Source: a virus
Strand: one strand, 5' to 3'
DNA: 64,000 bases
IMG/VR virus record: IMGVR_UViG_3300042507_006854
Coordinates: 32,001 to 96,000 of that record
A model generated the notes under the pieces. That model worked only from the letters and a program-made list of their open reading frames with translations. It was not told where the DNA came from and made no database searches. Each line of letters opens with the position of its first letter. Position 1 is the first letter of the stretch. The position numbers and the translations under genes were made by a program. Shown piece after piece: positions 14,252 to 63,896 of the stretch.

Positions 14252-14257
14252 GTGTAA
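14252..14257 (+). promoter_or_regulatory. GTGTAA putative late promoter
   Basis: 12 nt upstream of ATG 14270. Confidence 0.6.
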
Positions 14258-60261: not shown

Positions 60262-60543
60262 TTAGGGGGCAGGAATTCTTGAAAGACTACCTCCACAAAA
60301 AATACCATCTTTTATTAAAGTTATTGATCCATCTGGATTATCAACTCCAGTCCATTCATCAGGATTATTTTGTGCGTCATCAACAATACGCTCTACGTCT
60401 TGATCTCTAACATTAGAATCTTCTGATCCTTTAGAGTCTTTAGCGACACTATATCCAGGATCGTTTTCATCATCGCTTGGAGGTTGTATATTTAAATAAA
60501 TAGATCTACGACAGCAAGGTGGTGAAGGAGTATAATAAGCCAT
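60262..60543 (-). CDS. Small paralog family member 3 (CCRR...NNPDEW...FCG)
   Basis: Shared motifs; ATGTAA 9 nt upstream. Confidence 0.75.
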   Translation of the reverse strand: MAYYTPSPPCCRRSIYLNIQPPSDDENDPGYSVAKDSKGSEDSNVRDQDVERIVDDAQNNPDEWTGVDNPDGSITLIKDGIFCGGSLSRIPAP

Positions 60544-60566
60544 AATATAAATTTACATTTAAAAAA

Positions 60567-60878
60567 TTATAACCAACCGTTAAAATAACTACCGCAAAAT
60601 TCAGCTTCTCTATAAAATGAACCGCCTGGATTTTGACCAGGTGGAACCGGACCACTCCATTTATCTGGATTATTTTTAAAATCATTAATTGCAGTTTGTG
60701 CCGCATGTGATGATAAAGGAGGATTTCCACCTCCTTTAGCTACATCCCAAAATTCACTACCAGGACCTGGTGGACCAACGTAAATTCTTCTTTTACAACA
60801 AATAAAAGGGCCTAAAAATCCTAATAAAAAAATACTATTAGCCAAACTGAATTCAATAATATTAATTAATGTATTCAT
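60567..60878 (-). CDS. Small paralog family member 2 (hydrophobic N-terminus; CCKR...NNPDKW...FCG)
   Basis: Shared motifs; GTGTAA 10 nt upstream. Confidence 0.75.
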   Translation of the reverse strand: MNTLINIIEFSLANSIFLLGFLGPFICCKRRIYVGPPGPGSEFWDVAKGGGNPPLSSHAAQTAINDFKNNPDKWSGPVPPGQNPGGSFYREAEFCGSYFNGWL

Positions 60879-60897
60879 AATTTTTATATTACACTAG

Positions 60898-61209
60898 TTA
60901 AGAACCGAAATGTTCTATTTTTCCGCTCCCATTACAAAATGTGGCCATTCTTTGAAAAGTTTGTCGATTAGGATTTCCTGGTTTTTCAGTCCATTGATCG
61001 GGATTATCTATAAAGTCTTGCCTCATTTTTGCTTGATCTTCTTGTGATAAAGGTTCTCCGTCACCAGGTTTAGGATCATTTGGGTCACCGTTATCTCTTG
61101 AGTGCTCTGGGTCATCAAAATAATAATTTAAAGGCCCCTCATTTAACTGTTTAAATGACAAGGTTAGAAGTCTTCTACAGCAACCATCTGGAGGTCCACC
61201 AGCTTGCAT
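60898..61209 (-). CDS. Small paralog family member 1 (CCRR...DNPDQW...FCN)
   Basis: Shared motifs; abuts the upstream stop. Confidence 0.75.
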   Translation of the reverse strand: MQAGGPPDGCCRRLLTLSFKQLNEGPLNYYFDDPEHSRDNGDPNDPKPGDGEPLSQEDQAKMRQDFIDNPDQWTEKPGNPNRQTFQRMATFCNGSGKIEHFGS

Positions 61210-62829
61210 TTATTGATTCCTTGGTGGGTCAATACAAATGACTTGTTTATTAGCTAATTTGAAACATCCGTAGACCCCAGATGGAATACTTTCTACTGTT
61301 TCATAATCATAAATATTCGTAGTATATAAGTTACGGAATCTTCTTGTTTTAGAATTATCTGGGAAAATTTTTATACCAGAAGGTAAATTTTTTCTTAATT
61401 GCAAATAACTATTATTAATTCCTTTTCTTAAATTATTATTTGATAATTCAATAGATTTTCTGAGATTATATGATAATCCGAACCCTCTTTTTAAGACTGG
61501 CTCTGAGATAATAAAATTTCCACTTCCCGTAGTTAAAGGATTTTTAAAAGTATTTCTTATTGTTTGATCAATGTATGAATTATCTCCGTAATTTTTATAG
61601 AAGAATCTAAATTCGTTATTTGTGCCCATACGGCCATCTTTAGTCGTGATATATTCTAAAGTAATAGAATGTCCAGATGGTATTGTCCCATCCCATGTAC
61701 CCGTCGCCAAAGTTTTATTATTTATATATAAACCACTGTAAAATTTATAGAACCACGTGTCTTTTAATGGGGTTGTTTGTTTTAATACGTTTAATAATTT
61801 ATATTTATTATTAATTCCCGAATTAAAATTATCTATTATTGGGTTTAAACTTATGCCAGAATCAAATATATTTTGACCGCTAGGTAAATATTCAGAACCA
61901 ATATCTAAAATATTAACACTAATCCCAGAATTAATTTGAACATATTCATATTTTGGTGGTTTACCAGCAACTTTGGGTTGAATTTTTGAAAGTCTTAACT
62001 CTAAATTATCAACTATAGTATTAACAAATCTGTTTTGCACCCCGTGAGGACTAACATAAACAATTTTTTCTGTTCCGTTTGTTGATTTTAATGATGCGAC
62101 TAATAATCCATTCATGTCTTTATACATTTCAGGATATGTATAAACCGAATCTAAAGCGATAACAGTATTTAATTGAAAAACTGGATATTGCCAAAGAGTT
62201 ACGCTATTTGGGTATGGTAAATAACCTGAAACATTTTCATATTTCTTATATAAGAATGTATTTCTATTGTCGTAATTAATTCCGCTATTATAACCGGTAA
62301 TATAATAGCCTGATGTTATAACATTGTTTTGAATAGTAATTGGTTGATAATTAAGTTTAGCTCCTGTTAAAGATGTATTGTTTGATAGATTTGCGGGAAA
62401 TTGAATTCTAGAGAAAGGTAAATTTCTATCAATACTTTTGAGATGTGTTTCTCTCGATTCTAAAAGTGGTTTAAAAAAATTGCTATTTAAAGTTTCAAAT
62501 CTGATTTTATATGGAGCGAAATAAGAATAATCTCCATAGAAATTTAAGGCAAGTTCTGAAATAGTTTCATAAATTTTATTATCATTTTTAATAATAATAT
62601 TTTCAAAAGCGTTTTGCTTTCTTCTACTAAAAAGAATATCATTATAAAGAGTTTTTCTTAGAACTGCTGTCGGTATAACGTTTCTTAAAGTTCCAAGATT
62701 TATTACATCAAATTTATAGTCACGAATTCTCGAATTTGGGTGTGGCTTAGTATCTATTCCAGCCCCATCAAATGCAGATGGAACAAAACTTAACCCTAAT
62801 TTTTTATAATTATTTGTCGAAAGACTCAT
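61210..62829 (-). CDS. Putative virion protein (TG/SG-rich), directly downstream of the ribozyme
   Basis: 539 aa; no nuclease, reverse transcriptase or transposase motifs recognised. Confidence 0.55.
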   Translation of the reverse strand: MSLSTNNYKKLGLSFVPSAFDGAGIDTKPHPNSRIRDYKFDVINLGTLRNVIPTAVLRKTLYNDILFSRRKQNAFENIIIKNDNKIYETISELALNFYGDYSYFAPYKIRFETLNSNFFKPLLESRETHLKSIDRNLPFSRIQFPANLSNNTSLTGAKLNYQPITIQNNVITSGYYITGYNSGINYDNRNTFLYKKYENVSGYLPYPNSVTLWQYPVFQLNTVIALDSVYTYPEMYKDMNGLLVASLKSTNGTEKIVYVSPHGVQNRFVNTIVDNLELRLSKIQPKVAGKPPKYEYVQINSGISVNILDIGSEYLPSGQNIFDSGISLNPIIDNFNSGINNKYKLLNVLKQTTPLKDTWFYKFYSGLYINNKTLATGTWDGTIPSGHSITLEYITTKDGRMGTNNEFRFFYKNYGDNSYIDQTIRNTFKNPLTTGSGNFIISEPVLKRGFGLSYNLRKSIELSNNNLRKGINNSYLQLRKNLPSGIKIFPDNSKTRRFRNLYTTNIYDYETVESIPSGVYGCFKLANKQVICIDPPRNQ

Positions 62830-62830
62830 A

Positions 62831-63140
62831 GTTTACCATCCCCTGTCAGACACTATTCGGCGCTCTCTCTTGGTGAGCGCCTACTTCCGGTCTAACTGGG
62901 CAACTTATGTTATCGTGCGGGAGTTTACCCCGCACATCTCTACGTCACCGTAGAGTTCAGACTATATCTTGTTTACGTTTGCACGTAAATCAGGGCGCTC
63001 GTGGGAAGATTACTGTCCGTTCTGGACTCGCTTCCTAGTCGTTACACCTTTTTCGTATTCCTACGAAACTTGGCTCGGTATTGTCTTTGCCGCGTTAGCG
63101 GCAAAGAGTTCCACCGAATTCACCCCGAAATGGCCTAAAT
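62831..63140 (-). ncRNA. Group I intron-type ribozyme, free-standing and apparently circularly permuted
   Basis: P (AAUUCGGUGGAA), Q (AAUACCGAGCC), R (GUAACGACUA) and S (AAGAUAUAGUCU) elements. Pairings P3-P9.1 all check out, with GNRA loops. GC-rich island in AT-rich DNA. Confidence 0.9.
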
Positions 63141-63162
63141 TTTAAAAGATCGATAATAATAT

Positions 63163-63168
63163 TTACAC
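63163..63168 (-). promoter_or_regulatory. GTGTAA putative late promoter driving the ribozyme transcript
   Basis: Same motif as at structural genes, about 28 nt upstream of the first paired element. Confidence 0.6.
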
Positions 63169-63185
63169 GTAAATTTATGTTTTTT

Positions 63186-63896
63186 TTAAAAAATATTTAA
63201 ATTTGAAGAGAATGTTTCTTCAACAATTCTTCTTGCTTCTTTATCCTCAGAATCTTTAACAGCGTAAACTAACTTATTATTATAAATACTACATTTATAA
63301 ATAGAATCTCCAGCTAAGTTTTTAATTTCTTTAAAGTTGCCTTTAAAATCAATTAAATATGAACGATAAACGCCATCCAAATCTGAAACAGTTATAATAA
63401 ACCTGTCTTCTTGTTCAAAAACATTTGTTAATCTATAAATAAATTTATATTCAAAAGGTAATTTAAATAGTTCATCGTTAACAATTAATTTATCATGACC
63501 ATGTTTATGATCTATAGAAAACAATTTATTTTGAATCAAGCAAGAGCTAAACGATCTTGTTATTATGTTCATATCTCCAATAATATTTAAATTGGAATCT
63601 ATAGGGATATTAATATAACAATATACAATAGGTGTATTTAAACCTTGATTAAAACCAGCTGTATAGCCAAGATAAAGATTATTATCTTTAATTAAAATAT
63701 GTGGATTACACTCTACGAGAATATCTCCATAAATGCCATATTTCGGGGTATTAATTTCAGATTCAACATTATTCGAATCTTTCTTCCAAATTTTCCACGG
63801 AACGAGTTCGTATTCTCCGCCAAAATTTAATTTAATAGAATTTTCTGCAGAACAATATAGTAAGAAATTAGAAGATAAATAAGGTTGATGTTTCAT
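63186..63896 (-). CDS. Hypothetical protein
   Basis: 236 aa ORF. Confidence 0.6.
   Translation of the reverse strand: MKHQPYLSSNFLLYCSAENSIKLNFGGEYELVPWKIWKKDSNNVESEINTPKYGIYGDILVECNPHILIKDNNLYLGYTAGFNQGLNTPIVYCYINIPIDSNLNIIGDMNIITRSFSSCLIQNKLFSIDHKHGHDKLIVNDELFKLPFEYKFIYRLTNVFEQEDRFIITVSDLDGVYRSYLIDFKGNFKEIKNLAGDSIYKCSIYNNKLVYAVKDSEDKEARRIVEETFSSNLNIF

Follow-up and report, generated by a model that had tools for sequence, protein, structure and literature searches.

Locus and layout of the element

The IMG/VR phage record under study is 146,949 bp long, and the window that was analysed, to which all coordinates refer unless stated otherwise, is the stretch of 64,000 nt made up of its bases 32001-96000. 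Between ORFs 63186-63896(-) and 61210-62829(-) of this window lies a GC-rich gap of 356 nt that holds an element (62835-63168(-), hereafter copy A) with an intact group I core, and no gene is interrupted by it, just as the initial annotation of this DNA had claimed. Copy A is intergenic, has no upstream exon and thus lacks the flanking exons that would be joined into a linear product; read 5' to 3', it consists of a guide strand, the core, G62901, a 66-nt insert and the cut site at U62835, an order that fits that of a permuted intron-exon arrangement. An in-frame stop is found 3 nt 5' of the downstream AUG (62829-62827). The features of the locus, in the order of transcription, are the following:

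63163-63168, - strand: GTGTAA promoter-like motif, which precedes all four ribozymes of the genome and most family members
63140-63151, - strand: degenerate BoxA-like motif (GAUCUUUUAAAA), deviating from the BoxA consensus at two positions
63129-63135, - strand: guide (IGS-like) strand with the wobble G at 63134, a position fixed in 32/32 analysed elements
62908-63127, - strand: catalytic core P3-P9.1 (P4, P5, P6, P7, P7.1, P8, P9 and P9.1), matched by RF00028 and supported by covariation
62901-62903, - strand: 3' strand of P9.0 (UU) and terminal G (62901), within the conserved GAUAACA-N-UUG motif
62841-62900, - strand: insert (“tail”), a closed stem-loop that separates the terminal G from the substrate strand and is predicted to fold as a long hairpin
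62835-62840, - strand: substrate strand of the split P1 (GAUGGU), pairing with 63134-63129, with U62835 as the wobble partner of G63134
between 62835 and 62834, - strand: predicted cut (as a rule, members of the family have AA after the U)
62830-62834, - strand: predicted leader after the cut (AAACU), short, as in the ordinary genes of this phage
61210-62829, - strand: 539-aa gene downstream of copy A, paralogous to those that follow copies B, C and D

A renewed reading of the - strand found every position in the initial annotation to be correct, i.e., those of P3 (63127-63121/62997-62991), GCCAUU (63134-63129), GTGTAA (63168-63163), GAUGGU (62840-62835), the terminal G (62901) and the tail helix (62900-62890/62851-62841). 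Its claim of an own late promoter holds as far as a promoter-like GTGTAA motif being located directly upstream.

The group I core is conserved and under selection

The Rfam group I model (RF00028) matched 62938-63200(-) at 69.9 bits (E 1e-17; the gathering score is 50) when the search was run in “evalue” mode, while the default gathering-mode scan of the whole window missed the element due to its filters, and a whole-genome Rfam search likewise gave only three of the four copies described below. The folding energy of a 366-nt stretch was found to be far below that of its shuffles (z = -6.7). A hand-drawn P3-P9.1 structure, including the P7 pseudoknot and P9.0, was then scored on 19 members of the family: 92.8% of the cells were paired, as opposed to 72.4% for column shuffles and approximately 40% for slid controls, and 38 of the 55 core pairs showed a compensatory change. 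Among these pairs, P7 pair 153:243 covaries (A-U in 12 and G-C in 7 of the 19 sequences), and P9.0, the first pair of which is A-U in 18/18, has a second pair that is either A-U (8) or U-A (5), a covariation that splits the sequences into two subgroups (J7/9 AA with UU, and AU with AU). J8/7, P7 with its bulge, J4/5 and the terminal G are invariant across the family. The full group I core that had been recognized from the letters of the DNA is hence borne out by both the Rfam score and the covariation of the 19 members, and the core of copy A is real and under selection.

Further copies in the genome and relatives in other phages

Three further group I cores are encoded on the same strand of the genome, at 100.4, 104.3 and 112.6 kb (copies B, C and D, respectively), and the four copies, which head ORFs of 539, 914, 621 or 699 aa, share one plan: GTGTAA, 14-18 nt, (G)TTCTTTAAAA, a short variable strand, P3-P9.1 and GAUAACA-N-UUG, followed by a variable insert of 66-192 nt, the complement of the variable strand, (U)AAA and AUG. 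Copy C is situated in a divergent intergenic region, where a + strand gene begins 50 nt upstream, and therefore has no upstream exon on its strand. Copies A and B share 223 identical nt of the core (62908-63130 and L004:4407-4629, respectively) despite their different guides, inserts and genes, which points to gene conversion or an exchange of cassettes in the recent past.

Pattern scans of IMG/VR and metagenome contigs revealed about 40-45 relatives in other uncultured phages, the family as a whole carrying nine or more guide types. Its members mostly score above 150 with the family profile, whereas conventional introns reach at most 108, and it is only the family members that can be aligned through the leader. 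One of the contigs (L089:8144-8704(-), the same as L104) has two ribozyme units in tandem, the second of which precedes a Gly/Ser/Ala-rich open frame without an ATG and with an in-frame stop two codons before the frame.

A P1 helix split between the two ends of the element

The pairing of GCCAUU, just 5' of P3, with GAUGGU, at the far end of the element, was part of the initial annotation, and the homologues that have since been collected show that this end pairing is real and covaries across the family, being kept with compensatory pair types in 26 unique guide/substrate combinations. The guide G is invariant and located 9-10 nt 5' of the P3 anchor in all 32 analysed elements; its partner gives G.U in 25 of the 26 combinations and G-C once (L024). 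Offsets 0 to +3 are paired in 26/26 combinations, the pair types at offset +1 being GC (13), CG (5), AU (4) and UA (4), and the pair on the other side of the wobble, away from P3, is formed in 24/26. Later members contributed new pair types (a guide C with a G after the cut in L199 and L201), and the pairing is weaker in L170 and L203b. Altogether, the split P1 is short (4-8 bp), and the substrate U is usually followed by AAA(C) and mostly found 2-12 nt 5' of the AUG.

These counts were taken by an anchored script, with the downstream partner anchored on its U, because a full-length MAFFT alignment had left the 3' ends out of register. The observed guide/substrate pairing was matched by 0 of 20000 partner shuffles, a figure to be read with the substrate sites having been picked partly by complementarity and a 4-bp match being common by chance (2.5 sites per foreign-guide scan), for which reason the test was repeated with a target window fixed by the start codon alone: the 15 nt before the ATG then contained a full site for the own guide in 13 of 17 elements, compared with 21.5% for foreign guides. 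Nearly all members that had been found via core-only or BoxA-only patterns likewise have, 5' of the ATG, a site complementary to their guide. When the best complement of the guide was sought without constraints, AU-rich chance helices swamped the result.

As for the identity of this helix, the U is on the strand leading to the downstream RNA and the G on the strand running into P3, which is the polarity of a P1. A conventional relative of the core (L110:3100-3480(+)) interrupts the anticodon loop of a phage tRNA, where splicing after U33, as judged from the tRNA fold and the rule that exons end with U and introns with G, would yield a tRNA-Thr(UGU), and its guide, GGUCG, is located directly 5' of P3 with no P2 between them. 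(An alternative junction in L110 would give a tRNA-Tyr(GUA), but with an intron end that is not G.) The P1 guessed for four conventional relatives was not confirmed by exon continuity, probably due to nested endonuclease ORFs. The P1-polarity wobble, together with a guide placed like that of L110, indicates that the helix between the 5' and 3' ends is P1 and that the RNA is opened in L1; as read from these pairings, copy A is the usual intron circularly permuted at L1, with its P1 formed across the whole molecule. The natural circular permutation proposed initially is thereby retained, while the opening is moved from L2 to L1, and the end pairing, initially taken for P2, becomes P1 on account of its invariant wobble. 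The alternative cut after U63129 that had also been put forward would have the polarity reversed, and the wobble that is conserved is G63134.U62835, whereas U63129.G62840 (offset +5) is not.

The insert and features of a possible second step

The GAUAACA-N-UUG motif leading up to the terminal G is conserved in the family and shared by conventional relatives, which carry it at their 3' ends. Immediately 5' of the wobble G, the guide has a nucleotide that is able to pair with either of two residues, the one following the predicted cut and the one that opens the insert; the second of these pairs (G:C, U:A or A:U) is formed in 15/17 own combinations versus 54% of swapped ones, and a P10-type pairing of at least 2 bp is seen in 47% of members versus 28% after swapping. 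Such an alternation of the guide, as deduced from complementarity, would correspond to that between P1 extension and P10 in ordinary splicing.

The inserts of the relatives range from 15 to 192 nt (L089 and L132 having tails down to 15-25 nt) and are unrelated in sequence, and most of them fold in a manner that brings their ends together. In the orthologous copies D, L006, L188 and L189, however, the inserts share long identical stretches despite proteins that are only ~41% identical, so the insert itself may matter. A circular stop-less ORF was considered for the 66-nt insert of copy A and rejected, as stops are present in all three frames. The predicted back-splice junction of copy A had 0 matches in metagenome contigs, which, being mostly DNA, give this result little weight.

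Signals in front of the ribozyme and the predicted leaders behind it

At least 17 ORFs of the genome have GTGTAA 8-13 nt 5' of their ATG, the hexamer usually following an AT-rich run (examples in the window are at 14252, 14628 and 17645 on the + strand and at 60894 and 57451 on the - strand). Given this spacing, GTGTAA marks gene starts, most plausibly as a promoter from which leaderless or near-leaderless mRNAs are made, and its placement suggests that this promoter is specific to the phage. The leaders predicted to remain after the cut resemble this short GTGTAA-to-ATG spacing of the ordinary genes: AAACU-AUG for copy A, 8 nt for copies B and C, and 2-12 nt for most members, with a minority having the predicted cut site 23-141 nt from the ATG. 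A second GTGTAA promoter was observed between the substrate strand and the ATG of the gene in two relatives (L024:7549-7640(-) and L153:5040-5085(+)), that of L024 with a terminator-like hairpin 5' of it; the ribozyme unit there is uncoupled from the gene, and the cut would not always be needed.

In copies B, C and D and in most relatives, GTTCTTTAAAA stands at the position of the BoxA-like motif, a perfect match to the BoxA consensus, GYTCTTTAANA (PMC5725501). The same genome has a perfect BoxA consensus between two tRNA genes at L004:17214(+) (genome 113214) and a BoxA-like GTTCTTTGAAA after an AGTGTAT motif near the tRNA cluster at 122465(+) of the genome. With BoxA thus also occurring among tRNA genes, the motif seems to be a sign of transcription units of this phage that are not translated, and its probable role in front of the ribozyme is to attract Nus factors that would shield the long untranslated leader or assist its folding.

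Genes downstream of the ribozymes

Three groups can be distinguished among the genes headed by the ribozymes: a large paralogous family, which comprises the 539-aa gene of copy A, the corresponding genes of copies B, C and D and those of many relatives; a second family of 900-aa proteins; and a short basic protein that opens the tail-fibre operon in smaller phages. The downstream ORFs are complete, all of them beginning with M and continuing into a conserved N-terminal KLGLGG-type motif. The 539-aa protein had no match in Pfam or PHROGs, only weak baseplate-like leads in the Atlas, and its AlphaFold model (pLDDT 67) no match in the PDB at E up to 0.001, while one member of the paralogous family has a Laminin_G_3 domain or insert as well as hits to baseplate-wedge and virion-protein PHROGs. 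Directly 3' of the ribozyme-led 539-aa gene, three adjacent ORFs of 93-103 aa (60262-61209(-)) share CCRR, NPD-W-G and FCG motifs.

A proposed reaction and its alternatives

The reading preferred here, to which a probability of roughly 0.6 is assigned, is that copy A would be a natural group I ribozyme in circularly permuted form, which makes up the 5' portion of a phage mRNA and removes itself from it at U62835. Transcription would start a few nt past GTGTAA and run through the BoxA-like motif, guide, core, terminal G, insert, substrate and AAAC to the AUG. Free guanosine bound in P7 would then attack after U62835 and give rise to an mRNA starting with G-AAACU-AUG, which, being near-leaderless like the other mRNAs of the phage, would become translatable. 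In a second and less certain step, the 3'-OH of U62835 might attack after G62901, releasing a 66-nt circle, in which U62835 would be joined to C62900, and the linear core; the products would therefore be three, namely, the linear core, the circular insert and the downstream RNA with an added G.

Were it only the 3' splice site that reacts, by hydrolysis or in a lariat-capping-like manner, the 5'/3' helix would be a P10 that positions the bond after G62901 and the mRNA would keep the hairpin insert as a structured 5' UTR. In favour of such a reaction, the element has the terminal G, P9.0 and a helix by which the stretch 5' of P3 is connected with one lying 3' of that G, and the ribozyme stands in front of an ORF, as GIR1 does; a P10, however, requires no invariant G.U, yet one of P1 polarity is seen in 25/26 combinations, 15-192 nt separate the helix from the terminal G, the leaders left behind would be long and structured, unlike those of the other genes of the phage, and an Rfam search at E up to 10 returned only Intron_gpI and a chance U7 row but no GIR1, all of which makes this explanation improbable. 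It also seems rather unlikely that the element is a non-catalytic structured leader, i.e., a domesticated or decaying core retained for stability, translation control or recombination with no cleavage taking place. The second promoters of L024 and L153, which bypass the ribozyme, would agree with such a role, and identical cores, as in copies A and B, could promote recombination, but the columns of the catalytic core are invariant, compensatory change is widespread across the ~45 members, and it is difficult to see why guide and substrate should stay matched from gene to gene if no reaction took place.

The opening at L2, as envisaged in the initial annotation, would turn the 5'/3' helix into P2 and the tail helix into a P1 with the U62894.G62847 wobble and a micro-exon of 7 nt. 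Copy A does have an 11-bp tail helix containing this U.G, and many conventional relatives carry a hairpin just 5' of P3; the feature is nevertheless particular to copy A, as the other members have unrelated tail helices and only 2/19 closing stems contain a U.G with the polarity required, which leaves the micro-exon unsupported, and with tails of only 15-25 nt in L089 and L132 and the invariant wobble being in the 5'/3' helix instead, this version is very improbable. Even less credence can be given to conventional linear splicing with a 5' exon upstream, be it in ORF 63186-63896 or in a short leader. There is no terminator between the upstream ORF and copy A, hence read-through transcripts are possible, but no sequence upstream is complementary to the guide, the partner of which is downstream in every member, an in-frame stop precedes the AUG by 3 nt, copy C has no same-strand gene upstream, and the N-termini of the family are complete; the absence of an upstream P1 or 5' exon had been correctly pointed out from the start.

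If the preferred reading of a permuted ribozyme that cuts itself off the mRNA is extended to the whole clade, the latter might be an “inside-out” device for mRNA maturation, in which gene-specific guides direct a cut by guanosine that leaves a G-tagged, near-leaderless mRNA with a 5'-hydroxyl, the translation of this mRNA depends on the cut, the synthesis of virion proteins is tied to the GTP pool, a gene-specific circle is back-spliced, and BoxA/Nus provide protection. This extension is put forward tentatively, at somewhat less than even odds, and a strict link to mRNA maturation is weakened by the second promoters of L024 and L153, the G-C at the wobble position of L024 and the tandem units of L089.

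Relation to known systems and significance

The engineered permuted intron-exon (PIE) constructs made from the group I introns of T4 td and Anabaena pre-tRNA, which yield a circular exon and linear intron pieces, likewise have a ribozyme part before the “exon” and the 5' splice site after it, and their two-step chemistry is the normal one. They are, however, products of engineering, with an opening that is generally placed in a peripheral loop such as P6, whereas the phage element is natural and opened in L1, has only a substrate strand of 4-8 nt downstream, and the piece 3' of its predicted cut would be a whole mRNA. The lariat-capping ribozyme GIR1 of the Didymium and Naegleria twin-ribozyme introns, the reaction of which makes the new 5' end of an mRNA, is, like the phage element, derived from group I, located directly 5' of an ORF and equipped with a helix that joins the strands before P3 and after the terminal G; its core is remodelled (P15 and the DP2-DP2.1-P10 junction) and it branches 3 nt past the terminal G, in contrast to the ordinary group I core, the P1-type G.U and the lack of a GIR1 Rfam match in the phage element. 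A c-di-GMP-controlled group I ribozyme in a 5' UTR of Clostridioides difficile, reported by Lee and colleagues in 2010, is said to decide on the translation of the downstream gene. It is similar to the phage element in being a 5'-UTR group I ribozyme, but it has the conventional order, with two leader exons building the ribosome-binding site, and no riboswitch was seen in the phage element.

Among natural systems, the intron ND5-717 of mushroom-coral mitochondria (Chi et al. 2019, PMC6545197) is the only published back-splicing group I intron found in the literature searched, and its topology matches that of copy A. ND5-717, however, is an intron of a mitochondrial protein gene, holds most of the genome in its P8 and has exons encoding ND5 (PMC6545197), while the phage element is the 5' leader of a phage mRNA, with a non-coding insert and no exons restored. 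The circularly permuted group II introns of bacteria, which do not reside within ORFs and give rise to circular RNA (Roth et al. 2021, PMC8637638), are also natural free-standing permuted ribozymes of a self-splicing type, albeit of another ribozyme class and chemistry, and they never abut an ORF (PMC8637638), whereas the predicted cut site of the phage element, in most members, is only 2-12 nt away from the start codon that follows it. In the literature searched, a permuted, free-standing or group I-like ribozyme of such a layout was found for neither phages nor bacteria. The initial annotation was right as to the kind of element, a free-standing, promoter-led and permuted ribozyme, and wrong as to its opening point, P1 and micro-exon; the core and presumptive chemistry are those of ordinary group I.

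What, then, would such an element mean for the biology of these phages, and for that of group I ribozymes in general? To our knowledge, group I ribozymes in nature are almost only introns that repair the gene they interrupt. If the reading proposed here is true, the phage family would be the second case, beside the lariat-capping ribozyme, of the group I fold being re-used for the 5' ends of mRNAs, and the first one for bacteriophages. It would also represent a natural counterpart of the PIE method for circular RNA and a new link between the translation of leaderless mRNAs and a ribozyme reaction, and it would give BoxA, placed ahead of a ribozyme, a role that had not been expected.
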